Of a DNA stretch of 64,000 bases, positions 9,238 through 23,250 are shown piece after piece. The DNA is taken from assembly GCA_964435855.1 (NCBI GenBank), contig CAYTAU010000001.1, positions 6,633-70,632 on the forward strand. Direction: 5' to 3'. A program made the position numbers and the translations under genes. The notes under the pieces were generated by a model. The model made no database searches and was not told the DNA's origin. It was given only the letters and a program-made list of their open reading frames with translations. Origin of the DNA: an uncultured Bacteroidales bacterium (GTDB lineage Bacteria > Bacteroidota > Bacteroidia > Bacteroidales > CAYTAU01). Every line of letters begins with the position of its first letter. Positions within the stretch are counted from its first letter, which is position 1.

Positions 9238-10101
9238 TCATACAACCGAGTCTGCCTCATGCTGATTCATACTGCCTTTTTGTGAATAATGTGAATTAAG
9301 AATGTTTTTTCTACTCCTGTAAATAAACTTAATAATACCACCAATTATTATAAGCATACCAATAATAAATACATACCAGTTGAAATTTTGTGGAACATAA
9401 TTATTTGCCAGTTCAATTGAATCATCTATCCATGTCCATGTAAATATTTCATTATAGGTATAATATTTATGTAAGAAAGCAACATAATCCATAGTAAATG
9501 ATACTATAACAACGATACTCCCAATAATAAGAATTAACCATTCAAATAACTTTATCCTAACATTATCATATTTTTCTTGCAAGTAAATTATTGCAAATGC
9601 AAGAAATATCATCGCAATTGAGCAAATTACGGGAGTTATTACAGGGCCTACCCAGGTTACAGGAATTAAAAACAGGATATCCCATGTTAAAAATGATTCA
9701 GGCCAATCCAGTAAAAATTTTAAAAATACATAATAAAATATGTCCCAGATAGCAAATGAATAAATGAAGTATGCAAACTTTTGCAATTTAGTTTTTGCTG
9801 CAATAAATCCGATTGATACTAGCATTATTAATGTGGCAAATTCTCTTAAGAACTCGGTATATCCAATATCTATATCTATTGGCTGCAAGGGGAAATGAAA
9901 TCCGTTTGGATAATATAATGCACGCAAATATACTACAACCGAACTTTCTATAAATGCCATCCCAATACTAAATATTGTTACCCAAATTATTATTTTTATT
10001 GTTTCTTTTTTCATCTGTTTAAATTTTGCTATTTCCTTGATATTTTTGATTATATGTTTTGTCATGATTTTTGCAAAAAAGCAAAAATAACGCCAGAACA
10101 C
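9238..10101 (-). CDS. Multi-pass membrane protein, unknown family
   Basis: 287-aa ORF with about 7 hydrophobic segments. The true start may be Met13 (10065) or Met30 (10014). It is the last gene of the same-strand run that contains the exosortase. Confidence 0.6.
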   Translation of the reverse strand: MFWRYFCFFAKIMTKHIIKNIKEIAKFKQMKKETIKIIIWVTIFSIGMAFIESSVVVYLRALYYPNGFHFPLQPIDIDIGYTEFLREFATLIMLVSIGFIAAKTKLQKFAYFIYSFAIWDIFYYVFLKFLLDWPESFLTWDILFLIPVTWVGPVITPVICSIAMIFLAFAIIYLQEKYDNVRIKLFEWLILIIGSIVVIVSFTMDYVAFLHKYYTYNEIFTWTWIDDSIELANNYVPQNFNWYVFIIGMLIIIGGIIKFIYRSRKNILNSHYSQKGSMNQHEADSVV

Positions 10102-10121
10102 TTTTCTCTTTTTATCTTAAT

Positions 10122-10141
10122 CCCCGACTTAAAAGTCGGGG
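10122..10141. repeat. GC-rich hairpin ccccgac-ttaaaa-gtcgggg
   Basis: Read directly. It has the same ttaaaa loop and aatcccc lead-in as hairpin 3 of the tyrS-flanking elements. Confidence 0.6.
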
Positions 10142-10207
10142 CTATTATATTTTGCTTCGTTGGGGCTTGCTTAACCCAAACTATCGTTAGAAATAAAAAA
10201 TAAATTT

Positions 10208-11554
10208 CTATTGCATATTTTTCATTTTTCTAATTTCATTTTCAAGGTCCTTTCTATTTTCACAACTTACATTTATTAATCTAAAAGCATTCTCTCCTTT
10301 AATTGTTCTCCATCTCCAATCCCATTGGTCAATTGTTTGATAATCGCCATTATCATACCACCATGAAGTATAGAGTTTATCTGTGCCATTTACCAACAAA
10401 GCGGTATAAACTTTCATGTTATCTATTGTTTCAATATTTATATTTTCGAACATATAACCACTTCCTTTCCAGCAAATATAAGGATTATGATCGCTTCCAT
10501 AAAATTGAGTTGGCGGCTTTATATATATTAAAGCATTATCATTATATAGTTTAGTAACGTTATGTTCTGCAATCTCTATATTATAAGCCTGATAATTTGC
10601 CGTATTAATATCAATATTAGCTATACTGTTTGGTTGATAAACAATATTATAATAAATCAAAGCAATTGTTATTGGTAAGATCAATAATGGAACATACTTT
10701 CTATTATCTTTTGAAAATCTATTTGATCGTTTCATCTTTTTACCCAGAAATGTAATTACAAATGGTGTAATAAAATACAAAGGCACTATTGTATATAAAA
10801 ATATGCTGAAAATACCTATTATTTCATGAGAAAATGTTCCAGGTTCTGACCTAAACAAAATTAAGGCAATTATTCTTGCCAAATTACTGATCATAATTAA
10901 AATTATAGTTATAATAACCTGAAAAATAATTCCGTAAATTGAAAGAACTTGTCGATTCCTCCTCTCAAAAATACTGGTAAATAACAACATCATAAGAAAT
11001 CCGGTAACAACCATTTTTAATCCTATACATTCAGGGTCGACTGAAAAAGAAGAACCTGCATGAGAAATAATATTTCCGCTAACAGTATTTTCATATCCAA
11101 TAAAATTTAATAATTTTCCTGATAAAGCACTTAATTCTAACCTAATTGAAAAACTAAAGATATTTACGAAATATCGTGTAATTGACCCGAGAATAAAAAT
11201 CAGGACCAGTATTGCATTATTAATTTTCCCAAACAGATTTTCAACAATAAATATAAGTGCAAAACAAAATGCGAAATAATATATGGTAAGAACAGGTACA
11301 AAGTAATACAGAACGAGCATTACCAAACTGTAAAACCCATAACGTAATGAATAAATATTTTTATCTTTTACATAAATAATCATGGGAAACATCAATAATC
11401 CGAAATATAAGTTAAAATCTGAAATAAGATATCTCGACAACATTGAAAACCCGGCAACAATAATAAGTATTACAGAACCCAAGGCAAAGATTGCTTGTCG
11501 CTCAGTGTAGAAGCGAATAAAATAATATAATATTGAATAATTTTTTGCCAACAT
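10208..11554 (-). CDS. Exosortase-family protein (Bacteroidota XrtK/XrtN-like) with fused C-terminal EpsI-like domain
   Basis: 448 aa. The polytopic N-terminal ~300 aa carries candidate exosortase catalytic motifs in the usual order: VDPECIGLKM (Cys), SNLARIIALI (Arg) and SHEIIGIF (His). The soluble C-terminal ~140 aa has GSDHNPYICWKGSGY, resembling the EpsI H-x-P-x-x-C-x-x-G-x-G signature. Confidence 0.75.
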   Translation of the reverse strand: MLAKNYSILYYFIRFYTERQAIFALGSVILIIVAGFSMLSRYLISDFNLYFGLLMFPMIIYVKDKNIYSLRYGFYSLVMLVLYYFVPVLTIYYFAFCFALIFIVENLFGKINNAILVLIFILGSITRYFVNIFSFSIRLELSALSGKLLNFIGYENTVSGNIISHAGSSFSVDPECIGLKMVVTGFLMMLLFTSIFERRNRQVLSIYGIIFQVIITIILIMISNLARIIALILFRSEPGTFSHEIIGIFSIFLYTIVPLYFITPFVITFLGKKMKRSNRFSKDNRKYVPLLILPITIALIYYNIVYQPNSIANIDINTANYQAYNIEIAEHNVTKLYNDNALIYIKPPTQFYGSDHNPYICWKGSGYMFENINIETIDNMKVYTALLVNGTDKLYTSWWYDNGDYQTIDQWDWRWRTIKGENAFRLINVSCENRKDLENEIRKMKNMQ

Positions 11555-11590
11555 TCTTCTTAAACTATTTTAAGTATTTTGAATTATTAA

Positions 11591-12268
11591 TTATATATGC
11601 CGATTCGGTATATTCAGGTATTTTACAGTCAGATATCCTAAGATAAAAAAGCATGAGAAAAATATTGTCATACCATAAACAGCCGCGTTACTAAATGGAT
11701 GAATAATAATATCTAACATATCTCTAGCAAGAGCTAAAGGATTTGAAATAATATCCCAACTATTCCATCTTAGATAACGCCCTATATATATTCCAAAACT
11801 ACCTGTGAAAATTGCTACAATAGCAAAGCTCCATGATATAAAGTTCCCAAATCTTCTTTTTATAATTCTTTGCAAAATTATTAGTGAAAAAAAGCCTAAC
11901 ACCAAGCCATTCCATGCAAATGAAAGAAGTAATATCAAATCGAACCACAAGGGCATTCCCGGTTTTTGCCATAAATGAAATAAGTCCGTTATTATATACG
12001 GTGCATTAGGAAAAATAGGCAACCACACAATTACTGTGAAAAACAGCATTATTTTAGATTTGAATGTTTTATCGTATAAACTGTAAACAAAACTTATTAT
12101 AAAAGGTAACCAGGCTAAGAATAAGTTCCATCCTAAAAATATAAATGTAATTCGTGAAGTATATGTCATTCTAAATATTAACAATGCTACACTAAATAAT
12201 GAAGAGAATATTAAAACCCATAATGCTCCCTCTTTCTTTTGTCTTCTTATTTTCTTATAAATATTCAT
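11591..12268 (-). CDS. DUF1361-like integral membrane protein
   Basis: 225 aa with 6-7 TM segments. The family assignment is from recollection of the WNLFLAWLP / APYIITD type motifs and needs an HMM check. Confidence 0.55.
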   Translation of the reverse strand: MNIYKKIRRQKKEGALWVLIFSSLFSVALLIFRMTYTSRITFIFLGWNLFLAWLPFIISFVYSLYDKTFKSKIMLFFTVIVWLPIFPNAPYIITDLFHLWQKPGMPLWFDLILLLSFAWNGLVLGFFSLIILQRIIKRRFGNFISWSFAIVAIFTGSFGIYIGRYLRWNSWDIISNPLALARDMLDIIIHPFSNAAVYGMTIFFSCFFILGYLTVKYLNIPNRHI

Positions 12269-12388
12269 TTACGATATTGTCTAAACTAATTAAATTTAAA
12301 ATTTTGTCATCTTTGAAAAAATATAATAATTATTACAATATTCTTTTATTTAGCAGATTAGCTCGCCAAAAAGTTTGAATACAAATTT

Positions 12389-13771
12389 TTATAGTTCTTT
12401 AATTTCACTTTTTAGCTTCGCTACCTTATCCTTTTTATCGTTATCATCAACTTTTAGATTATACCAGTCTATTTTTCGAGAAAAATACATAACAAGAGCT
12501 AGAATAATAAATAAACCAATACATCCAAATAACAATGCATAGCCTTGTAACTGAATTATTACAAAAATAAATGTGTACATAATAACAAGAATCCCAGATA
12601 CGAGAAATACGAGATTATTAATCTTAAGAACAGATTTCATATAAGCAGTAATTAATATTAAAGTTAGCAATGCTGAAATAATATATGCCAAATCAAAATT
12701 CAAATGTTCTGACATAGAAATTAATAAAGTGTAAAAAATTACTAATGCAATTCCAACTAAAATATATTGAACAGGATGAATAAATACTTTCTTTAACACT
12801 TCAACAAAAAAGAATACTATAAAAGTAAGAGAAACAAATAAAATTGCATACTTAATAGACCTCATTGATTTTTGATACCCATCAACAGGTAATCGCAAAT
12901 TTACTCCAAAAGATGAACTTGTAATATTATGTTTATGACCTGTCCATGCTTGAGGAAAATTCCTATTAAGATTTAATATGCTCCATTTAGCCGTAAATCC
13001 TTTTTCATTAATTTGTCGTGAATCCGGTAAAAAAGTGCCATCAAAACTTGGATTATTCCACTTAGAACTTATTTTAACATCGGTTGTTTTACCAACAGGA
13101 ACAAAATACAGTAGTTGACTCCCTCTTAAATTAATATCAAACGAAAACTCGAATGACATGCTATCTGCCTTATCAATATTTATTGGACAACTAATTCCAT
13201 TATAAAAAATTTCATCAGTTATAGCTCCAGGATTAAACAAGTTTTTTTCATTATTCCATTTTAATTCTACTTGTTTTTTAATTCCCTTGAGGTCGCTAAT
13301 TCCAATGCTAACAAACGCTTTGTCAAAATGTATGTGTTGTTTAAAAATCTCGAATTGTTTGTAATCAATTGAATTAAATTTTCCATGAAAATTGAGATTT
13401 GAGTTATATACAACAATTTTATAAATCCCCCTATATCGCTCTTTTGGGTCTATGTTTCCTATAATATTTAATTCGTCAGGAAGAATGTGCATGTATTCTA
13501 CGGTTTTTATAATTTTATCCTCGCGGTCACGTTCCGAATATTGTTTTACATATTTATCATAAGGAATTGTAATAATTGGTCCTGCTATTGTTTGCTTTTC
13601 GCCCCATTTCGAGCTAACTTCATTTATTGCATCACTTTGTATAAACTCTCTTTCCGTAATAAGATTTTTCAAAAGAGTTGTTGGTATTAATAGCAACACT
13701 ATTAAAATTACGATAATACCTGCTTTTAATAGAATATTCGATTTTAATTCTTTCATTTCAATTTCCTCCAT
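12389..13771 (-). CDS. creD: Cell envelope integrity protein CreD
   Basis: 460 aa. It has one N-terminal TM, a large periplasmic domain, then 5 C-terminal TMs. The N-terminus KAGIIVILIVLLLIPTTLLKNLITEREFIQSDAINEVSSKWG is typical of CreD. Confidence 0.8.
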   Translation of the reverse strand: MEEIEMKELKSNILLKAGIIVILIVLLLIPTTLLKNLITEREFIQSDAINEVSSKWGEKQTIAGPIITIPYDKYVKQYSERDREDKIIKTVEYMHILPDELNIIGNIDPKERYRGIYKIVVYNSNLNFHGKFNSIDYKQFEIFKQHIHFDKAFVSIGISDLKGIKKQVELKWNNEKNLFNPGAITDEIFYNGISCPINIDKADSMSFEFSFDINLRGSQLLYFVPVGKTTDVKISSKWNNPSFDGTFLPDSRQINEKGFTAKWSILNLNRNFPQAWTGHKHNITSSSFGVNLRLPVDGYQKSMRSIKYAILFVSLTFIVFFFVEVLKKVFIHPVQYILVGIALVIFYTLLISMSEHLNFDLAYIISALLTLILITAYMKSVLKINNLVFLVSGILVIMYTFIFVIIQLQGYALLFGCIGLFIILALVMYFSRKIDWYNLKVDDNDKKDKVAKLKSEIKEL

Positions 13772-13839
13772 TTTTAATTTTTACATTATTTATAGTAATA
13801 CTGTATATATTCATATTTTTGTAAATCATCACATTTTGT

Positions 13840-14217
13840 TTACAGTTTTGCTACCTTAGAAACAAAAACAATAAGTCCTATACTTGCCGATGTAATAGCT
13901 GCTATTAGTGCAGCACCTGCCGCAAGATCTTTAATTTTTCCTGCTTTTTCATTATGTTCGGGCGATACAAAGTCTACAAAATACTCTATAGAAGTATTTA
14001 TTATTTCTGTCATAAAAACAATCCCAATTGCAAAAATTATAAAACACCACTCTATAGTATTTATTTTTAATAAAAACCCGGCTATAATAACCAAGATTGC
14101 TATAACTGTATGTATCCAGACATTATGCTGAGTAGTAAAAAGTATTTTTATACCATTGAAAGCATAGACAAAACTCTTTGCCCGTTTTTTACTTGAAAAT
14201 TTGTTTTGTGTTTCCAT
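13840..14217 (-). CDS. dgkA: Diacylglycerol kinase family (DgkA / undecaprenol kinase-like) small membrane kinase
   Basis: 125 aa with 3 TM segments. It carries the SFVYAFNGI..., EIINTSIE and DLAAGAALIAAI motifs of prokaryotic DAGK. Confidence 0.8.
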   Translation of the reverse strand: METQNKFSSKKRAKSFVYAFNGIKILFTTQHNVWIHTVIAILVIIAGFLLKINTIEWCFIIFAIGIVFMTEIINTSIEYFVDFVSPEHNEKAGKIKDLAAGAALIAAITSASIGLIVFVSKVAKL

Positions 14218-14228
14218 AGTTTATTATT

Positions 14229-16736
14229 TTAAAATTTAAATCTATAAAATAAGAATCCCGCTACTAACAACCCCATAATAATTAATGCCCACTCATGAGG
14301 TTCAGGAACTGCTCCGCTTGATTCCGTAAAAGCATTTTCCAGGCTTGTATTAGCATCTGTTTTTTCAATATCAAATTTATCGTAATCTTCTTTCGATTCA
14401 AGAACAATAAGGCTTGATACCGGAGTAACAACATAAGCTTCTTTAGCAATATTTATTATTTCATTATTAATATATTCTTTATCAAGAAATTTATTGCCAA
14501 TTTCATTCATGATCCTATTGTACGCAAACAATCTTAATAAATGATCAGGGGCTTCACTTTTATGTGCAATTGTATCTTTAACTATTGCAATATTTGAAGT
14601 TTCTAATGCAACCGTGTTTTCATATTCTTTGATTATCGGAAAAGTATTCTCTTTTAATATTTGTTTAAGTTCATCAATAGTACCTGTCGCGTAATCAAAT
14701 GAATCATATTCTTTTAAAACCTTCAAATATGATGTTATGTTATCTCCAATATCAAACAGCTTTATTTTACCTTTATTACTTTTTAAATATTCAAGTGTAA
14801 AAAATTTAAAGGCAGTATTTTCAAGATCTTCAAGCATTGGAGAATCCGATTTTGATTCTGTTATTAATAATGAATTCTTAGGGGTCTCAATTTTGTAAAT
14901 GGGAAATAGAGAAAAATTCAAATTGTGTAGCTTAACAAAAACTCCTGCTCTATTATCCTCAGTAATTTGAGTCAATTCATTAGTAAATACAAATACATTT
15001 TTTTCCTTTATCAGTTTCCAAATCTCATTAAATTTACTCTCTGACCAACTATTATTAATGTCAAGATATACATTCTTTATATTAATATTCTCTTTGGTTT
15101 TGGTAATTTCTTTAATTTTATATGAATTGCCATTAAATGAAAAATACTTTTTTGAGAGTTCCGTTTTTGGCATTTTTATTTTCCAATTTGCTCTATATTT
15201 TCCTTTATATGTATATTTATCGTTCTTCTTTTTAAAGAACTTTGGAATATCAATATTTTTAAACTCTTCCGCATTCTTAACAATAATTTCTATGCTCTCT
15301 TTTGTGTCAGAGTAGTCAGGACCCTGAAAGTATACATTATCAAAGATCAATTCATTATCATTAATTCTCAATGGAACTGTTACGCCTAATTTAAATTTCC
15401 TGTCTTCTTTAGGAGTACAAGGAAAAACTCTAACTATTAACCTGTTTCCTTCCTGCCAATGAACAACGGAAGGATCTCTAACTTCAACACCAACAATTGT
15501 AGTATAAGCACTATCGGCTTTTTCTTTAGTTGTTAATCTTGCTTTTTCTTCAACACCGTTTATCCATAATGATAAAGAAGTTGCAACTGCTCCTTCAGGT
15601 AAATGAAATGTATACACAGCTTCTCCTTCAGGCGACCACCATCCGTGGGGATCATAATATGTATTCTCAATAGTTATTTTTTTCTCGATATATGCGAGCC
15701 TGTAGTCGGGCATCAATTCTACTTCTGTCTCAATATTTTTTGTAATTAGATCATCATCAGACCAAAGTCTGGGAATAGCTTCATGTCGGTATTTAAATTT
15801 TGTTTCTAATATTTTTATTTGATTATCTCTATAAATTCCGAGGTCTCCGAGTATATTATGTGATATCATTGTAAAAGGATCGTGTCTTTTAATGAAATTA
15901 GATGAACCAAAACCCCACATATCAAATCCCCAAAGATCTGTCCTTGTTTCATTAATTAAATCACTTTCCATTGCCCACTCTGTAAAATAGTCGTCAGGTA
16001 AATTTTGGCTAAGCATAACCCACTCGGGAATATCTTTATTTATATTCGCATTTGTATCTTTTACAAGTTCTTGTGTTTGTGACCATTTGAACATAAAAAA
16101 TATTGCGATAAATATAGGTATTACGGCTCCTGTTAAGAATGAGATTTTTGCAGGTCTGCTTTTTATTTTAAAAACAGGAATCAGAAATACAGCTAACCAA
16201 ATCCATTGTATTATTCCATTTAAAGAAATTCCAAAAAACCAGCAAAAAAGTAAACCAAATACTGAAATTGGAAATAATACTATTGAGAAATACAATGCAA
16301 TAGTTGCACCTGCTCCAAAAATAAAGAATATGGCTTCTTTTACATTATCAGATAGTTTTTCTTTATATGCATATAGTATCAAAGCAATTTGAGTAATAAT
16401 TATGTATATCTCTAACCATAGTACAGGCTCTGAAAAAGCACGCATACTTCTATTTAAGGCAAAAGCGCTTATTGTAAACAAGACAACAAATAACCTAAAA
16501 CTTCCGCCATCAAGTTTAAAAATATTCCATCCCTGAAATATTATTCTTCTTAATAATATAAAGGAAAAATACCCTAATGCAAGTATGTAATTAATGAAAA
16601 ATGAGCCTGTGAAAAAATCACTACTTGTTCCTTTATCATAAATGTCGGATAAAATAAATACTGATACAGACAAGCATATTGCTATTAGACCAATTAGTTT
16701 TGGTAGTTTTTGCGAAATTTCTATTTGTTTTTTCAT
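14229..16736 (-). CDS. Polytopic membrane protein with VIT-like domain and C-terminal VPEP-CTERM sorting signal (putative exosortase substrate)
   Basis: 835 aa. The N-terminal ~220 aa is multi-TM. The middle segment YTFHLPEGAVATSLSLWINGVEEKARLTTKEKADSAYTTIV...DPSVVHWQEGNRLIVRVFP is VIT-like. The extreme C-terminus SGAVPEPHEWALIIMGLLVAGFLFYRFKF is a PEP motif, a TM helix and a basic tail. Confidence 0.8.
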   Translation of the reverse strand: MKKQIEISQKLPKLIGLIAICLSVSVFILSDIYDKGTSSDFFTGSFFINYILALGYFSFILLRRIIFQGWNIFKLDGGSFRLFVVLFTISAFALNRSMRAFSEPVLWLEIYIIITQIALILYAYKEKLSDNVKEAIFFIFGAGATIALYFSIVLFPISVFGLLFCWFFGISLNGIIQWIWLAVFLIPVFKIKSRPAKISFLTGAVIPIFIAIFFMFKWSQTQELVKDTNANINKDIPEWVMLSQNLPDDYFTEWAMESDLINETRTDLWGFDMWGFGSSNFIKRHDPFTMISHNILGDLGIYRDNQIKILETKFKYRHEAIPRLWSDDDLITKNIETEVELMPDYRLAYIEKKITIENTYYDPHGWWSPEGEAVYTFHLPEGAVATSLSLWINGVEEKARLTTKEKADSAYTTIVGVEVRDPSVVHWQEGNRLIVRVFPCTPKEDRKFKLGVTVPLRINDNELIFDNVYFQGPDYSDTKESIEIIVKNAEEFKNIDIPKFFKKKNDKYTYKGKYRANWKIKMPKTELSKKYFSFNGNSYKIKEITKTKENINIKNVYLDINNSWSESKFNEIWKLIKEKNVFVFTNELTQITEDNRAGVFVKLHNLNFSLFPIYKIETPKNSLLITESKSDSPMLEDLENTAFKFFTLEYLKSNKGKIKLFDIGDNITSYLKVLKEYDSFDYATGTIDELKQILKENTFPIIKEYENTVALETSNIAIVKDTIAHKSEAPDHLLRLFAYNRIMNEIGNKFLDKEYINNEIINIAKEAYVVTPVSSLIVLESKEDYDKFDIEKTDANTSLENAFTESSGAVPEPHEWALIIMGLLVAGFLFYRFKF

Positions 16737-16747
16737 TTTTTTAATTT

Positions 16748-18247
16748 TTATTGTTTAATTCTTTGTGCTATTGTTATTAGATTTTCATATGAATTACTAC
16801 TCGCATAACTCCACGACAACCATGATTTTTCTTCTTTTGAATAAATAAAGTCCTCAATTCTTTGGTCAAGTATTTCTATTGAATTTTCATTCTTTAAAAA
16901 ATTTGAATTGATAAACTTATCTCTGTTTTCATCAAGAATATATAAAGTATTATCTGACATTCTTAAAAGAAAGTCTGCCTCCATGTTTTCAGGAAATCGG
17001 TGATCAAGATTATGCTTTGTAATTATTATATCCCAATTAAAGAATGATATAAAGATCATCATTAAGAATACAGCCCATGCATTTGTTTTTAGAAGATAAA
17101 ACCCAGAACGTTTTTTCTGTATTTTAAGGAATATTGTAATTAGACCAACAATAGTTAAGCATAGAAATATTAATACTCCTATTCTTTTGTACGCTAATCC
17201 AAAATAGTTTATATAATGATAATTACGAATTATAACAGAGATTATCATAATAATATTTTGACCTAACCACGCATAAACACCATATTTCAATAGTTTGTTT
17301 TTAGAGAAAAAATTCAAATTCCCTCTAAAATAGATCAGTATTAAAGTCATTGATAAAAGAATACTAAGGATTAATAAGTAAGTTCCTTCGTGAACCAATT
17401 GTTTAAGATCCATTCCTTCTTTAAGCTCAAAATTCAGCCATATCCAGTTAATATCAATAATGTTGACTATTAGAACAAGTATATTTATCAGGATTACAAG
17501 AATTAATGCTCGTTTATATTCATTTTGTAAGGCAAGGAATTTTCCGAATCTTTTTCTTTTGGCTTTTATTGATTCTCTTGAAATATGCTCGTTTCTTTTT
17601 GATTCGCTTGAAGTAAAAAAGTCAAGTTTTGCATTATAGATAATGCCAACAGTAATTGAAAACCCTAACACAAGAAAAAAGAACTGTGCCCAAGTATAAT
17701 TTATAAACAATTCTTCTAAGAAAACACGTATGCTTTTACCAATATCTGCTGTAAACTTATGAAATACAGGGTTGGCGCCTTTAAAAATAAAATAGAAAAC
17801 GAGAAGAATAAGAATGGGAAATAAAAATAATTTAAGCCATCTCCAGAATGAAGTTTTACCTTTTCTGTTTTCTTTTTTTGATTTAAGGTCAAGAGCCAAC
17901 AATCTTGGTGCAACAAAGAAATTTAAAAATCCTGCCGACCAAGATGTTAGCACTGACCTTAAACTTGGCTGAAATATAAAGCCAAGCGTTAAAATAAACG
18001 AACAAATAAATGCGAACTTACTTGTTCCTGAGTTATAATAAACTACTAAAACTGCCGATATTAATGTGCCTACAAGGGCTATAAATATGTTCTTTTTCTT
18101 AAAACTGTCCGCTTGTAAATAAAATACTAATCCGAACATTATTACACTATATATTAGTGTATTTATTCCAAGATTTTCTCCCCAGAAAAAAGTATAAAAT
18201 ACTATTGTTCCGGCTACTAAAGCTAATAATCTTACTGTCCTTTTCAT
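16748..18247 (-). CDS. Large polytopic membrane protein (DUF4153/DUF4173-like)
   Basis: 499 aa with more than 10 TM segments. It lies 11 nt upstream of the VIT/PEP-CTERM gene. The family name is tentative. Confidence 0.6.
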   Translation of the reverse strand: MKRTVRLLALVAGTIVFYTFFWGENLGINTLIYSVIMFGLVFYLQADSFKKKNIFIALVGTLISAVLVVYYNSGTSKFAFICSFILTLGFIFQPSLRSVLTSWSAGFLNFFVAPRLLALDLKSKKENRKGKTSFWRWLKLFLFPILILLVFYFIFKGANPVFHKFTADIGKSIRVFLEELFINYTWAQFFFLVLGFSITVGIIYNAKLDFFTSSESKRNEHISRESIKAKRKRFGKFLALQNEYKRALILVILINILVLIVNIIDINWIWLNFELKEGMDLKQLVHEGTYLLILSILLSMTLILIYFRGNLNFFSKNKLLKYGVYAWLGQNIIMIISVIIRNYHYINYFGLAYKRIGVLIFLCLTIVGLITIFLKIQKKRSGFYLLKTNAWAVFLMMIFISFFNWDIIITKHNLDHRFPENMEADFLLRMSDNTLYILDENRDKFINSNFLKNENSIEILDQRIEDFIYSKEEKSWLSWSYASSNSYENLITIAQRIKQ

Positions 18248-18266
18248 CTGATAATTGTTTTAAAAT

Positions 18267-18337
18267 AATTGCCAGATGGAACTCGCCACTATCATCATTT
18301 CTTTGCATGTTAAGCTAATTGACATGGCTCGTTTCAT
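18267..18337 (-). repeat. 71-nt intergenic element, copy 1 (reads ATGAAACGAGCCATGTCAA... on the transcribed strand)
   Basis: 58/71 ungapped identity by hand count to the copy at 39227..39297. It ends 20 nt upstream of the DUF4153-like start codon. Confidence 0.8.
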
Positions 18338-18426
18338 AAACAATTATTTGGTTAAATTTCTAATTTGCAGTATCAGTAGTAAATAACCCTATAATTCGCA
18401 TTTAATTGTTCATGTTAAAACCTTTT

Positions 18427-18726
18427 TCAGCTTCCTCCTTTTATTAATTGTTCAAGAGCATCAAGATGTTGTTTGAAAGCTCTTTTACCTTTTTCTGTTA
18501 CTTTATATGTTGTATTCGGCTTTTTGCCAATAAATTGCTTTTTTACCTCAATAAATTTTTCTTTTTCTAATGCATTTATGTGACTTGCTATATTTCCATC
18601 ACTTGCATCGAGCATCTTTTTTAGTGATTTAAAATCTACTTTATCATTTACCATAAGTATTGACATTATTCCTAAACGAATCCTGTTTTCGAAGATCTTA
18701 TTAATATTTAGAATAATGTTTTTCAC
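18427..18726 (-). CDS. Small winged-helix transcriptional regulator (HTH_34 / PadR-ArsR-like)
   Basis: 99 aa. It has RLGIMSILMVNDKVDFKSLKKMLDASDGNIASHINALEKEKFIEVKK, then a wing and a C-terminal helix. Confidence 0.75.
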   Translation of the reverse strand: MKNIILNINKIFENRIRLGIMSILMVNDKVDFKSLKKMLDASDGNIASHINALEKEKFIEVKKQFIGKKPNTTYKVTEKGKRAFKQHLDALEQLIKGGS

Positions 18727-18747
18727 TTTTAATTCTTTGTTTCTTGT

Positions 18748-19398
18748 TTATTTCTTTTCGTATTTATAATACATTATAATACCATAAAGAATATGAAATA
18801 CACCAAAACCAACAGCCCAAATTAATAAACCATAACCGGGAATAAAACATGCTGTTAATCCAAGCAATATTTCAATTATCCCAAGATATTTAATATCATT
18901 TAAAGTATATTTGCTTGCATTTAACAATGCTAATCCATAAAAAATTAGTGTTACAGGAGCAATAAGAAATATTGCACCATAAAATAAAAGCACTATACAA
19001 AAAATCCCTCCAGTAACAACCGGAATTATTAAAGCTGAAAGCATTTGTTTAACAGCTTTTGACCAAATTTTATGACCACTCTTTTTTGCTTTTCTTGTTG
19101 TAAGGATAATTGCAAAAAATAATGAAAAAACAAAAACCAAACCTGCATCAACAAAAAGGAAAATTAAAAAGTCGGGTAAGGGATAACCTCTATAATCGAA
19201 TATCTGATTAAAAAGTTCAGGAGTATAAAATTCATAATTGAAATACCAAAAAGCTACCGCTGCTCCAATTAATGCGAATATTCCTGCAAGAACGCCCGAT
19301 AGTCCGCTAAGAGATATAAAACGAGAAGAATGTTCCATTATAGAACGTATCTCTATTAAGTTCTCTAAGTGTTGTGTCTGTTTTGTTTTATCATCCAT
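18748..19398 (-). CDS. Membrane protein (5-6 TM), unknown function
   Basis: 216 aa. It lies 21 nt upstream of the wHTH gene on the same strand. Confidence 0.6.
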   Translation of the reverse strand: MDDKTKQTQHLENLIEIRSIMEHSSRFISLSGLSGVLAGIFALIGAAVAFWYFNYEFYTPELFNQIFDYRGYPLPDFLIFLFVDAGLVFVFSLFFAIILTTRKAKKSGHKIWSKAVKQMLSALIIPVVTGGIFCIVLLFYGAIFLIAPVTLIFYGLALLNASKYTLNDIKYLGIIEILLGLTACFIPGYGLLIWAVGFGVFHILYGIIMYYKYEKK

Positions 19399-19557
19399 TA
19401 CTCAATAAATTAATTTGTTTTAAAAAGTACTTTGCAGTACAAAGTTAAATATAATAATATTCCTACCAAATTTTTTAACATTTTTTTTGAAATTAATTTA
19501 TAATATGCTGATTATCTGGGTGATTTTAAATTAGCTTTGTATTACTTAAATGTTTTT

Positions 19558-19589
19558 TTTGACAAACAGGCAACTATTTTGTATATTTG
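19558..19589 (+). promoter_or_regulatory. Candidate Bacteroidota sigma-A promoter (-33 TTTG, -7 TATATTTG)
   Basis: TTTG at 19558-19561 and TATATTTG at 19582-19589, with a 20-nt spacer. The -7 box ends 38 nt upstream of the ATG at 19627. Confidence 0.35.
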
Positions 19590-19626: not shown

Positions 19627-22600
19627 ATGAAAAAATTTCTACTTATCTGTATATTCTTAATTGTATCCTTATATTCATTTGGGCAATTTGGTGAAAAACA
19701 AGTTTTGAATCATGCAATGGGTGGTATATACGAAATTATACCAATTGATTATGATAATGATAATGATAATGATCTTATAGTTTCAACTATTAATGGGAGC
19801 AAAGTTGTTTTTTATGAAAATATTGGAAATGATTCATTAAATATTCAAAAGGTTATTTGCACTACTGCTCACATGAATATTGATACAGGAGATATTAATC
19901 TTGATGGATTAACAGATTTAATAATTGGTAATAATTTAGGTGTTGGTTGGTATGAAAATTCAGGAACAAATAATTTTTCAAATTATCATTTGGTATATAG
20001 CTCAAATGATTTATGTTTTGGTACTGCTGCAGATATTGATAATGACGGAGATTTCGATATTGTAGCAGGATTTTATAATACATCAAAAATATCATGGTTT
20101 ACAAATGATGGATTAGGTAATTTTGGATCTGAGCAAATAATTACAAATTCTGCAACAGATGTTAATACTATTCAAGTAGAAGATATGGATAATGATGGAT
20201 TTAAGGACCTGGTTGTTACGTCTGCTATGGATTATGCAATTGACTTTTATCATAATAATGGTAGTTTAGTTTTTACATGTTCTAATTTATATCCTGCAAA
20301 TAATACGATCCCTGTTAATAATGCCCCACAATTAATTGATATTAATAGTGATGGTCTAAAAGATATATTATTTCATTTATGGAGCACTCTTCAAATTACA
20401 AATTTAGGAGGAGGTAATTTTAATACTGCTGGATTTTATAGTACAAATGCAATGGGCTATGTTTTAGATTTTAACGATTATGATAATAATGGCAGTTTGA
20501 ATGCTGTTTATGGTGCAGGTATTTTTGCTGGTTATGTTGAAATTGTAACGACAAGTCAAATATTTTTTATGAATGATGATAATATTTTTTCCACAGATAT
20601 ATTTTTTACAGATTTCAATAATGATGGTTATTTAGATATTATTGAAGGGAGAATTTCAGGAAGGATTTTTTGGTATGAAAATGATGGTGCTAATTATTTT
20701 TTAAATCCTGTTCCGCTTAACAACAAATGCTATTCTCCTTTAAGAATATATGCTGAAGATTATGACTTTGATGGAGATCAGGATATTCTTGCTGCATATA
20801 CTTATGACAGATTTTTAGCACTTTACGAAAATCAAGGAGGAGGAGTCTTTGCATCCGAACAAGTTATTATTGATACATTAATTAATTATGTGGTATCAGA
20901 TAAAACTTCTTTAAATGATCTTGATAATGATAATGATCTTGATTTTGTTTATAGAGGTGATGATCAGTTGATAATACTTAAAAATAATTCTGGTATATGG
21001 GATACAACAACAATCGACACTACTAACATTAGAAGTATTTGTATAGAAGATATGGATCTAGATGGATTTAAAGATATTGTTTTTTCAAATTTTAATAATA
21101 CATATTTATTAATAAATGATGGTACTGGGAATTTTCCAATTGCCCAATTATTAGATACACTTTCGTCATATGATTATTATGATTTTATTAATGCTATTGA
21201 TATGGACAATGATTTAGATATGGATTTAGTTGTTGCAACTTCAAGTGGTGAAGTTTATTGGACAGCAAACAATGGTTCATGTCAATTTGATACCATCCAT
21301 CTGGTTTTTAATACTGGTAGTAATTTTTTTGGATTGCTTACTAAAGATTTAGATAACGATGGAGATATGGATATTATCCCTTTTTCAGGTCATGATATTT
21401 TTTGGGTGAAAAATGATGGCAATTTTAATTTTAGTAGTTCTGTAATTTTTTCTGATTGGACAGATTTCGTTCATAGTATAGATATTGCCGATCTTGATAA
21501 TGATACTGATATGGATATTGTTTTTACGTATAACAGTATTGTGTATTGGATTGAAAATGAAAATGGTGTTTATTTAAGTCCAATTATTGCTGAAGGAAAT
21601 TCTATACAACCAGTACCAGTAGTAACTGGAGATTTTGATATGGATGGTTTTATTGATATCGCATTTGGAACAGATGGGTCTAATGAAGTTGCCTGGATAA
21701 AAAATTATGTAAATTGTCCATACAAAATTATGGGTGAAATATTTTATGATGCAAATCAAAATGGAATAAGAGATACTTTGGAGGCAGGTTTTTTAAATTC
21801 AAATATTCAAATTTCTCCTGGCTCTCTGGCTTCATACACAAATCAATATGGTGAATATTGGAAAGCTGTTAGTGTTGGAAATTATACAGTTGATTATACT
21901 CCATTAAATTATTGGGGAATAACAACTGCATATCAAAACTATAATGTTGACATAACAATAAATCAGCAAATTGTTGATACATGTGATTTTGGATTTTATC
22001 CCGATTCAGTAGTTACAGATATTGCAACAGACTTAATATTTGATCATGGTATGTGTGGATATTACGGTCAATTCTGGATACATTACAGAAACATTGGAAC
22101 AAATCACGACAAAGGGATTATTGAGTTGAAACTAGATACTATGACAGATTTTTATTATTCCACATTTACTCCCGATTCTATTATAAATGAATACGTATAT
22201 TGGCATTTTGATTCATTAGATTATTTTGAAGAAAAAACATTTTATGTTTATACTTCATGGCCGATAACTACATCTATGAATGATACTATCGTAGAAGTTC
22301 TTAATCTTTATGTTTTGGACAGTATTGGAAATAATACATACACATCTATTGATACAACACTTATTGAAGTTACTTGCTCATACGACCCTAATGATAAGAG
22401 AGTTGAGCCTGTTGGTTATTCTGTTGAACATCATGTTTCTAATAATCAAAGACTAACTTATACCATTCGTTTCCAAAATACAGGAAATGCAACAGCAATT
22501 GATGTTGAAATTATTGATACATTAGACCAGAATCTTAATTTATCAACTTTTGAGCTAGTAGCATCAAGTCATTCAGTTAGAACAACTATAGATAACTATA

Positions 22601-23250
22601 TTCTTAAATTTGAATTTGATAGTATAATGTTACCAGATAGTACTGCAAATGAAATGGAAAGTCATGGGTTTGTTAGATACAGTATAATACCTGATTCGGG
22701 ATTAGTTCCAAACACTACAATTTTAAATAAAGCTGAAATCTATTTTGATTACAATCCTGCTATTATTACAAATACCGTATTTAATAATATTGAGTGCTGG
22801 ATTTCTCCTCCAGTTCCGATAATAGAATACTCCACAGGTAATTTAATTGTTAATACTACAAATAATATTCAATGGTATATAAATGATACAATAATTAATG
22901 GGGAAAACAATACAAGTATTAATCCACTCTGGACAGGAAGCTACATGGTTGAAGTAATTAATCAATACAATTGCGGCACATTCTCAGACACTTATGATTA
23001 CGTGGTTAATATTGATGAATTCAATAATAATAATTTTGTTTTATACCCAAATCCAACAAGTGGTATTCTTTACTTCAAAAACATTAAAAATGCACAAATT
23101 ACTATTACAGATTTAACAGGAAGAATTGTAATAAGAAAAAATAATGTGAATAAAAGTATAGATATTAATTTATTGAAAACCGGATTATATATAGTTAGGA
23201 TTAAACAAGCAGAAAATTTTGTAACAACAAAAATTATTAAAACTCATTAG
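19627..23250 (+). CDS. FG-GAP/VCBS-repeat secreted protein with T9SS C-terminal sorting domain
   Basis: 1207 aa with a signal peptide. It has many D-x-D/N-x-D-G-x-x-D repeats (DIDNDGDFDIV, DMDNDGFKDLVV and others) and a CSYDPNDK...FQNTGNATA adhesin-type module. It ends LYPNPTSGILYF...GLYIVRI.... Confidence 0.85.
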   Translation: MKKFLLICIFLIVSLYSFGQFGEKQVLNHAMGGIYEIIPIDYDNDNDNDLIVSTINGSKVVFYENIGNDSLNIQKVICTTAHMNIDTGDINLDGLTDLIIGNNLGVGWYENSGTNNFSNYHLVYSSNDLCFGTAADIDNDGDFDIVAGFYNTSKISWFTNDGLGNFGSEQIITNSATDVNTIQVEDMDNDGFKDLVVTSAMDYAIDFYHNNGSLVFTCSNLYPANNTIPVNNAPQLIDINSDGLKDILFHLWSTLQITNLGGGNFNTAGFYSTNAMGYVLDFNDYDNNGSLNAVYGAGIFAGYVEIVTTSQIFFMNDDNIFSTDIFFTDFNNDGYLDIIEGRISGRIFWYENDGANYFLNPVPLNNKCYSPLRIYAEDYDFDGDQDILAAYTYDRFLALYENQGGGVFASEQVIIDTLINYVVSDKTSLNDLDNDNDLDFVYRGDDQLIILKNNSGIWDTTTIDTTNIRSICIEDMDLDGFKDIVFSNFNNTYLLINDGTGNFPIAQLLDTLSSYDYYDFINAIDMDNDLDMDLVVATSSGEVYWTANNGSCQFDTIHLVFNTGSNFFGLLTKDLDNDGDMDIIPFSGHDIFWVKNDGNFNFSSSVIFSDWTDFVHSIDIADLDNDTDMDIVFTYNSIVYWIENENGVYLSPIIAEGNSIQPVPVVTGDFDMDGFIDIAFGTDGSNEVAWIKNYVNCPYKIMGEIFYDANQNGIRDTLEAGFLNSNIQISPGSLASYTNQYGEYWKAVSVGNYTVDYTPLNYWGITTAYQNYNVDITINQQIVDTCDFGFYPDSVVTDIATDLIFDHGMCGYYGQFWIHYRNIGTNHDKGIIELKLDTMTDFYYSTFTPDSIINEYVYWHFDSLDYFEEKTFYVYTSWPITTSMNDTIVEVLNLYVLDSIGNNTYTSIDTTLIEVTCSYDPNDKRVEPVGYSVEHHVSNNQRLTYTIRFQNTGNATAIDVEIIDTLDQNLNLSTFELVASSHSVRTTIDNYILKFEFDSIMLPDSTANEMESHGFVRYSIIPDSGLVPNTTILNKAEIYFDYNPAIITNTVFNNIECWISPPVPIIEYSTGNLIVNTTNNIQWYINDTIINGENNTSINPLWTGSYMVEVINQYNCGTFSDTYDYVVNIDEFNNNNFVLYPNPTSGILYFKNIKNAQITITDLTGRIVIRKNNVNKSIDINLLKTGLYIVRIKQAENFVTTKIIKTH

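Follow-up and report, generated by a model that had tools for sequence, protein, structure and literature searches.

An exosortase N and its VIT-domain partner within a candidate co-regulated set of membrane-protein genes in an uncultured Bacteroidales bacterium

Introduction

The catalytic signature proposed for exosortases consists of the EpsH motifs Cys-x-Gly, Asn-x-x-Arg and His-x-x-x-Gly (Haft 2006, PMC1569441). XrtA/EpsH acts on many substrates with signal peptides, is found with exopolysaccharide (EPS) loci and is under sigma-54 and PrsK/PrsR two-component control. Experimental precedents for removal of a C-terminal helix followed by lipid-type attachment are ArtA with PGF-CTERM substrates in Haloferax volcanii and rhombosortase with GlyGly-CTERM substrates in Vibrio cholerae (PMC6098224, PMC11980579). 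Bacteroidota have catalogued single-target systems, XrtK with MSEP-CTERM (TIGR04287/TIGR04286) and exosortase N (XrtN) with a VIT-domain protein. Here we analyse a run of nine genes at positions 9,238–19,398 of a 64,000-nucleotide stretch of DNA (the window) from an uncultured Bacteroidales bacterium, which encodes XrtN, its VIT-domain protein and seven further proteins. The XrtN–VIT core is an already catalogued family, known by comparative genomics only. We consider it probable that the run holds a genuine XrtN system that sits within a phylum-wide set of genes for inner-membrane proteins and shares their regulation.

The nine-gene run and its closest described relatives

An earlier, sequence-only reading of this DNA had described nine minus-strand open reading frames (ORFs) with short gaps. 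The ORF coordinates agree: in ascending order the frames encode 287, 448, 225, 460, 125, 835, 499, 99 and 216 amino acids (aa), and the intergenic distances are 11–179 nt. NCBIfam and Pfam hidden Markov models (HMMs) scored above their cutoffs for the labels given by that reading, namely CreD, DgkA, DUF1361, DUF4153 and winged helix-turn-helix (wHTH) regulator, and TIGR04476 and TIGR04477 bore out its guess of an XrtN-type exosortase with the VIT protein as substrate. Two membrane proteins, which we call g216 and g287 after the lengths of their ORFs, matched no Pfam or NCBIfam family. Eight of the proteins contain 4–12 hydrophobic 19-mers and the regulator contains none, as expected if all but the regulator are embedded in the membrane, and the 64 kb hold a single PEP-CTERM-like tail; on both points the earlier reading was right. 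No paralogs of the nine genes occur within the window. In the order of transcription, the genes are as follows.

18748..19398, minus strand: g216, small polytopic membrane protein, first gene of the unit, no Pfam/NCBIfam family
18427..18726, minus strand: wHTH, 99 aa, HTH_34 (PF13601, 106 bits)
16748..18247, minus strand: DUF4153 polytopic membrane protein (PF13687, 153.6 bits, above the gathering threshold), often a cargo gene of g216–wHTH clusters, whether XrtN is there or not
14229..16736, minus strand: VIT protein (XrtN substrate), 835 aa (TIGR04477, 869 bits, and Pfam VIT)
13840..14217, minus strand: DgkA-family lipid kinase of the diacylglycerol/undecaprenol kinase family (PF01219 DAGK_prokar, 116.7 bits against 22.3)
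12389..13771, minus strand: CreD-family inner-membrane protein, 460 aa (NF008712, 517.4 bits against 275; PF06123, 545 bits)
11591..12268, minus strand: DUF1361 membrane protein (PF07099, 139.5 bits, above the gathering threshold)
10208..11554, minus strand: XrtN, 448 aa (TIGR04476, 345.2 bits against a cutoff of 200)
9238..10014 (corrected start), minus strand: g287, conserved polytopic membrane protein, no family

Compared with the catalogued XrtN system, the locus has the same one-enzyme, one-substrate relation, the same phylum and the same substrate tail of VPEP, transmembrane (TM) helix and basic end. It differs in gene order and in company: VIT and XrtN are normally consecutive, whereas the window and three related loci (L091, L092 and L002) have DgkA, DUF1361 and sometimes CreD between them, and the pair is merged with the g216–wHTH unit under one candidate operator. 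With XrtA/EpsH the locus shares the enzyme superfamily, its motifs and a tripartite sorting signal (Haft 2006, PMC1569441), as well as a conserved upstream DNA motif that links, or in the window would link, substrate genes to a dedicated regulator (PMC1569441). Unlike XrtA, the window has one substrate with seven TM helices, no recurrent EPS genes, and a palindrome with a small HTH_34 protein in the place of the sigma-54 and two-component control. XrtN falls outside the classical XrtA family, for which it scored 17.3 against 105.6 (TIGR02602). ArtA belongs to the same enzyme superfamily as XrtN and has the same Cys-centred triad, but ArtA and rhombosortase come from another domain of life or another enzyme family, recognize other motifs and act on otherwise soluble substrates.

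XrtK with MSEP-CTERM is the other single-target system of the Bacteroidota. The VIT region matched the model of MSEP-CTERM, the XrtK target (E=6e-9), and XrtN weakly matched XrtK, but the window proteins score far under the cutoffs of those models and the tail reads VPEP, not MSEP. XrtN and XrtK thus look like sister one-to-one systems with related substrates.

XrtN carries the exosortase motifs and a conserved C-terminal domain

The match of XrtN to TIGR04476 covers model positions 4–406 of 406, and the second-best exosortase model, XrtK, reached only 27.6 bits. Its catalytic motifs are C176-I-G178, N224-L-A-R227 and H243-E-I-I-G247. In an alignment of 34 homologs that are 28–58% identical to the window protein, C176/G178, N224/R227 and H243/G247 are invariant columns. 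The sequence-only reading would have given up the exosortase assignment had the protein lacked a match to exosortase models or had its Cys, Arg and His failed to align with the triad; the assignment stands on both counts.

An AlphaFold 2 (AF2) model (mean predicted local distance difference test score, pLDDT, 87.8) shows a polytopic core, a basic stretch at 271–283, a further TM helix at 284–305 and then a beta-rich C-terminal domain of about 130 aa (approximately 320–448), which is expected to be periplasmic and lies within the span of the XrtN HMM. This domain contains the most conserved stretch of the family, the invariant H356-x-P-x-x-C361-W-x-G-S-G-Y. It showed a weak likeness to DcrB/PsbP/Eag-type folds (Foldseek E=0.035), and all Foldseek matches of XrtN were weak and confined to this domain; a search of PDB sequences with an XrtN profile found no related solved structure. 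The earlier description of the protein as an exosortase–EpsI fusion holds for its exosortase part. For the EpsI part, PF11984 gave a sub-threshold match (E=0.12, 12.5 bits against a cutoff of 26.1) that begins at H356-x-P-x-x-C, TIGR02914 gave no match, and the C terminus of XrtD was weakly similar (E=0.036). An EpsI fusion is plausible, if weakly supported.

Some related loci have unusual surroundings of XrtN. Two of them contain XrtN without an adjacent VIT gene: in L021 (9640–10040) a remnant resembling an insertion sequence and half an operator (GCTAAAGTACTTTTTAT) lie upstream, and in L063 (8048–9832) a gene for an Omp85-like protein of 594 aa precedes XrtN. In L003 (11442–12269; Aridibaculum aurantiacum) a PAP2-family lipid phosphatase is encoded directly downstream of XrtN. 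Considered alongside DgkA at other loci, this gene is a hint that a lipid-phosphate step may take place close to the XrtN system.

The VIT protein is a membrane-anchored VIT–vWA protein with a sorting tail

The VIT protein scored 869.4 bits against TIGR04477 (XrtN system VIT domain-containing protein; cutoff 250), and Pfam VIT (PF08487) matched residues 354–450 (35 bits against 26.5). Its gene lies 2.7 kb upstream of XrtN on the same strand and encodes the sole PEP-CTERM-like tail in the 64 kb. The AF2 model (pLDDT 84) has about seven N-terminal TM helices (residues 14–216), a body of VIT and vWA-like domains (approximately 330–790) and a final TM helix at 813–834 followed by RFKF. Because the N terminus and the loops at 63–81, 124–133 and 191–198 are basic, the protein is predicted to have an N-in topology with residues 230–810 in the periplasm.

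The tail reads GAVPEPHEWALIIMGLLVAGFLFYRFKF and has all three parts of a sorting signal: motif (GAVPEPHEWA), TM helix and basic cluster. The motif is of the PEPxxWA flavour, and G808, P811, E812, P813, E815 and W816 are invariant among 37 homologs. Generic tail models stayed below threshold (TIGR02595, 13.1 against 16; PEPxxWA-CTERM, 21.6 against 35).

The top Foldseek match of the body was inter-alpha-inhibitor heavy chain 1 (ITIH1; 6fpy/6fpz, E=1e-15, about 600 columns). The two proteins share the architecture of VIT and vWA-like domains (PDB 6fpy), but the sequence identity is 14%, ITIH has no N-terminal 7-TM domain, and the motif that resembles a metal-ion-dependent adhesion site (MIDAS) is DxNxS in the window protein (D-I-N-N-S, residues 559–563), where the canonical form is DxSxS. 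D559 is invariant, and at least 90% of homologs have N561. Cleavage of ITIH close to its C terminus creates an end that becomes esterified to chondroitin sulfate, a glycan. There was also a weak match to TIGR03788 (E=0.017), a model of marine proteobacterial proteins with VIT, vWA and LPXTG, which we take to be the sole target of a dedicated sortase. These similarities suggest that VIT–vWA proteins with processed C termini are a recurring theme; as to the chemistry, the analogy offers a lead and no more.

Only the VIT gene is co-conserved with XrtN

We gathered 94 related loci, designated by L numbers, and used the nine proteins of the window as queries against their six-frame ORFs; the neighbourhood statistics rest on metagenome contigs and 12 exact-protein look-ups. 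Co-conservation was assessed in 31 full-flank XrtN loci (dereplicated at an XrtN identity of 80%), which contained the other genes as follows.

VIT: 29/31
wHTH: 16/31
g216: 15/31
DUF4153: 6/31
DgkA: 4/31
DUF1361: 4/31, usually beside DgkA
g287: 2/31
CreD: 0/31

The sequence-only reading had taken the nine genes as one candidate system and had named the lack of co-conservation of CreD, DgkA, DUF1361, DUF4153 and wHTH with the exosortase as evidence against it. These five occur in 0–16 of the 31 loci and VIT alone is co-conserved with XrtN, so the single nine-gene system is not borne out. In 13 of the 31 loci the VIT–XrtN pair stands with no accessory gene detected. CreD does accompany XrtN outside this set, in L070, L091 and L094, and occurs without XrtN in L089.

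VIT typically lies directly before XrtN, with a gap of no more than 100 nt in 55 of 68 dereplicated loci that have both genes. Among the related loci the gap exceeds 700 nt only in L091, L092, L002 and L047, and in the first three of these the accessory genes sit between VIT and XrtN, as they do in the window. Accessory genes are always on the XrtN strand, in an order that varies among loci: g216–wHTH–VIT–XrtN–DUF4153–DgkA–DUF1361 in L009 and L024, and g216–wHTH–DUF4153–VIT–XrtN–DUF1361–DgkA in L023. L091, whose XrtN is 47% identical to that of the window, has the window's gene order apart from one additional gene; its junctions are tight or overlap, and it too has a single operator. Among cultured organisms, Pontibacter kalidii (CP111079.1) and Pedobacter metabolipauper encode g216–wHTH, two operator copies and VIT–XrtN.

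The same accessory genes are found apart from the exosortase. The g216 family comprises at least 7,999 homolog clusters at 55–60% identity, and the VIT family 1,354 clusters. Four g216 homologs on large contigs (L087–L090) have wHTH immediately downstream and no XrtN or VIT within 8 kb, and these XrtN-free clusters continue with DUF4153 (L087, L088 and L090) or with CreD–DgkA (L089); homologs of g287 (E ~1e-75) are present in L087 and L090. Wherever both were found, wHTH directly followed g216. Since these accessory genes cluster with g216–wHTH even in the absence of a neighbouring XrtN, they are not specific to XrtN and would belong to a wider regulon.

Glycosyltransferase and EPS genes were absent from the nine-gene run, and none recurred near XrtN in 44 loci. 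De novo clustering of neighbouring genes returned one further recurrent family, which is missing from the window: unnamed membrane proteins of about 160 aa (g160; 157–171 aa, 40–60% mutually identical), found in operator-controlled clusters with and without XrtN. Its members are:

L086, 6838–7344
L087, 9129–9644
L088, 10835–11344
L090, 9754–10242
L091, 7122–7595
L092, 3296–3775

Several other clustered neighbour families were discarded as antisense shadow ORFs. The XrtN-free g216–wHTH clusters of L087 (13256–14008) and L090 (8987–9730) also encode proteins of 247–250 aa with weak matches to rubrerythrin- or ferritin-like proteins, possibly soluble or di-iron components of the regulon.

A conserved palindrome overlaps the promoter of the run

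Upstream of g216 lies a promoter that overlaps a palindromic candidate operator, and the gap after wHTH contains a possible remnant of a second copy.

19424..19470, minus strand: promoter and candidate operator, with -33 TTTG at 19470–19467, a 19-nt spacer and -7 box TAACTTTG at 19447–19440
18360..18383, minus strand: possible decayed relic of a second operator, TTTACTACTGATACTGCAAATTAG, with the 9-nt TACTGCAAA common to the intact copy, loop included

The palindrome, ACTTTG-TACTG-CAAAGT with an ACTTT extension, occupies 19445–19424 and ends 25 nt upstream of the g216 ATG. Its left arm is the -7 box of a Bacteroidota -33/-7 promoter pattern, TTTG-N19-TAACTTTG. Across related loci the consensus is ACTTTG-N5-CAAAGTACTTT, and the full 22-nt consensus has one exact match in the 64 kb, the site upstream of g216. 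When the window was scanned for TTTG-N17-23-TAnnTTTG, the run's sole intergenic full TTTG-N19-TAnnTTTG promoter was again this one. Over the whole window the Bacteroidota pattern is unenriched (13 instances against 8.6 expected), so only the position of the g216 site carries weight; a sigma-70 scan was uninformative (89 sites against 79 expected).

The palindrome is present upstream of g216 in 29 of 29 loci with a readable region. In 1.16 Mb of related loci the strict form [AG]CTTTG-N5-CAAAG[TC] occurs 85 times, against about 0.3 expected as estimated from base composition: 32 sites are upstream of VIT, 29 upstream of g216, 24 just after wHTH and none elsewhere. The 24 post-wHTH sites lie about 20 nt past the stop codon and precede DUF4153, CreD, g287 or small unlabelled genes. 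Even where g216–wHTH is not nearby, 15 of the 19 loci that could be assessed have the palindrome before VIT, sometimes in tandem. A -33 TTTG stands 19–22 nt before the palindrome in 31% of instances, against a background of 5.6%. The arms vary independently: G..T and A..C pairs occur, the compensatory G..C never does, and the loop is free. This argues for a pair of DNA half-sites rather than an RNA stem. Rfam contained no family that matches the palindrome, and the element is undescribed in the searched literature.

Tandem copies 60–66 nt apart were recorded upstream of VIT, away from g216–wHTH, in L004 (7441–7523), L037 (2811–2893), L042 (578–660), L078 (7356–7432) and L084 (7344–7426). In the 260 nt before VIT, L015, L044, L050 and L055 show no recognisable operator; L015 instead carries another palindrome, CACACTCGCGTATGAGTGTG.

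In most lineages an operator-promoter precedes g216 and another follows wHTH; of these, only the g216 one is present in the window and in L091. In the window's 179-nt wHTH–DUF4153 gap there is no match to the consensus within five mismatches. The element at 18360–18383 shares nine letters with the intact copy, and we tentatively regard it as the decayed relic of a second operator. Because the second operator has probably been lost and VIT and XrtN are split by interleaved genes, the eight genes from g216 to XrtN would depend on one promoter. The sequence-only reading had supposed that the nine genes act together on the grounds of strand and spacing; one promoter with a conserved palindrome and the same gene order in L091 now support co-regulation, and it is the idea of a dedicated machine that is not supported.

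The g216–wHTH pair

The closest solved structure to wHTH is the winged-helix protein PH1061 (PDB 1ub9, E=7e-12). The pair resembles BlaI/BlaR1-type systems, or PadR regulators with membrane proteins, in that a sensorless wHTH protein of about 100 aa is encoded beside a membrane protein, but g216 has no protease or sensor domain recognisable by Pfam or NCBIfam. With small autoregulated wHTH repressors it shares a palindromic site that overlaps two promoters, that of the pair itself and another ahead of cargo genes. We propose that g216 is a partner or sensor of the wHTH regulator. The searched literature contained no characterised pairing of HTH_34 with g216 and nothing relevant on DUF4153, DUF1361, HTH_34 or CreD in Bacteroidetes. 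A role of DUF4153 as a Cache-like sensor was considered and rejected, the family having been taken out of that clan (PMC4822843).

g287 and flanking features

Alignment with six orthologs (66 invariant columns) places the true start of g287 at the ATG at 10014, which gives a protein of 258 aa in place of the 287 aa reported earlier and widens the XrtN–g287 gap from 106 to 193 nt. This spacer (10015–10207) contains one notable structure.

10122..10141, strand not assigned: GC-rich 8-bp hairpin, CCCCGACTT(AA)AAGTCGGGG, z=-2.9

The hairpin is unique in the 28%-GC window, has no T-run after it and matches no Rfam family; a -7-like box, TATTTTTG, follows at 10089. In L085, L091 and L092, XrtN and g287 overlap, so that the 193-nt spacer is lacking in these relatives. 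The hairpin may mark a transcript end or a processing site, and g287 may be transcribed separately from its own start behind it.

On the other side of the run, a divergent plus-strand gene (19627–23250) encodes a protein of 1,207 aa with FG-GAP/VCBS-like repeats and a C-terminal tail of the type IX secretion system type, which is consistent with a Bacteroidota host. This gene has its own promoter-like TTTG-N20-TATATTTG at 19558–19589.

Proposed mechanism and alternative explanations

On our reading, XrtN–VIT is an optional member of a wHTH-controlled regulon of membrane proteins, here arranged as one operon under a single operator. A wHTH dimer would bind the palindrome and repress transcription by occluding the -7 box and the start site, and g216 would pass on an envelope or membrane signal that relieves the repression. 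The members of the regulon would be polytopic membrane proteins, in a combination that varies: DUF4153, CreD, DgkA, DUF1361, g287, g160 and VIT–XrtN. In this clade the operator after wHTH would have been lost and the VIT–XrtN pair split by DgkA–CreD–DUF1361. By analogy with ArtA, rhombosortase and sortase, Cys176 of XrtN, facing the periplasm, may attack the VPEP motif at the membrane surface and remove the C-terminal helix. The new C terminus of the VIT protein might then be handed to a nucleophile, which we think likelier to be a lipid head group or a glycan of the envelope than water. Since the protein would still be held by its N-terminal 7-TM domain, the outcome would be a doubly tethered or an activated periplasmic VIT/vWA module. 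More tentatively, g216, HTH_34 and the operator ACTTTG-N5-CAAAGTACTTT may define an undescribed, phylum-wide regulon of envelope or membrane homeostasis, with an exosortase arm that links the ITIH-like VIT/vWA protein covalently, by its C terminus, to a lipid or an envelope glycan.

Several points weigh against this proposal. The searched literature makes no mention of XrtN or exosortase N and contains no XrtN experiments. Classical surface sorting of the VIT protein is unlikely, because its N-terminal membrane anchor stays after any cleavage. We infer that wHTH is a candidate binder of the palindrome, and co-localisation is the only basis for this. In four unlinked VIT–XrtN loci (L015, L044, L050 and L055), the 1.5 kb before VIT contain no operator. 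The run itself has gaps of 179, 120 and 68 nt, which could hold promoters missed by the pattern, and a weak hairpin in RNA is another form that the palindrome could take.

Three alternatives concern the composition of the cluster and the nature of its control. The nine genes could form one dedicated XrtN machine, in which DgkA, CreD, DUF1361, DUF4153, g216 and g287 are specific factors for processing or anchoring the VIT protein. Shared strand, close spacing, the order kept in L091, L092 and L002 and the accessory genes between VIT and XrtN in this clade would fit such a machine, and DgkA, or PAP2 in L003, beside XrtN would suit a lipid-transfer step. The low counts of DUF4153, DgkA, DUF1361, g287 and CreD among the 31 loci, the 13 loci free of accessory genes, the clustering of these genes with g216–wHTH where XrtN and VIT are more than 8 kb away or missing, and a g216 family at least six times the size of the VIT family make it quite improbable. 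Still less probable is that XrtN–VIT and the g216–wHTH cluster are chance neighbours that share neither regulation nor function. About half of the XrtN loci do have no g216–wHTH nearby, and the four unlinked loci just mentioned have no palindrome, but g216–wHTH is found upstream on the same strand in 15–16 of 31 independent loci from several families, the palindrome precedes VIT in most unlinked loci and is confined in 1.16 Mb to g216, wHTH and VIT sites, and in this clade the two gene sets are interleaved, not juxtaposed. We also think it unlikely that the palindrome is something other than an HTH_34 operator, either an RNA element (such as a hairpin at the 5' end or, after wHTH, a weak attenuator or terminator) or the site of another factor. 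As RNA, ACUUUG-N5-CAAAGU and the ACUUUU after it could fold into a hairpin of 6 bp that ends in a U-rich tail, and about 20 nt past the wHTH stop codon, where the second copy lies, a terminator would be expected. Against this, the palindrome also stands upstream of g216 and of unlinked VIT, where a terminator would have nothing to act on; the -7 box falls on its left arm, with a -33 TTTG at the proper spacing; its arms vary without compensation; its 11-bp centre-to-centre spacing fits a dimeric winged helix; and Rfam returned no match.

The remaining alternative concerns the chemistry. XrtN may be purely a protease that clips the C-terminal helix of the VIT protein, for maturation, activation or release of the C-terminal end, with water as acceptor and no transfer to lipid or glycan. 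Simple proteolytic maturation is a live and strong alternative to the tethering that we propose, if a somewhat unlikely one. The 7-TM anchor of the substrate would make a new anchor needless, no genes of EPS or glycan synthesis recur near XrtN, and one-step transpeptidation is unproven even for ArtA (bioRxiv 10.1101/2023.06.07.544157). Transfer is favoured by the arrangement of Cys, Arg and His, which is common to transpeptidating sortases (PMC1569441), by the lipid modification of ArtA and rhombosortase substrates (PMC11980579) and by the DgkA and PAP2 genes in several neighbourhoods. The glycan ester at the cleaved C terminus of ITIH, the structural twin of the VIT protein body, points the same way.

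Implications

Exosortases are widespread, and very little about them has been shown by experiment. Although the present analysis does not reveal the chemistry of XrtN, the problem becomes easier to approach: of the run's other proteins, VIT alone has a specific tie to XrtN, and the remaining ones would form part of a wider regulon. It also provides a regulatory handle in the form of a candidate regulator, a precise candidate operator of 17–22 bp and a partner membrane protein, and P. kalidii and P. metabolipauper are cultured organisms in which these can be tested. The searched literature contains no description of the regulon or of its operator. If such a regulon exists, it would give a first context to DUF4153, DUF1361, the CreD of Bacteroidota and three unnamed families; if it does serve envelope or membrane homeostasis, the orphan XrtN system would gain its first regulatory and functional context.

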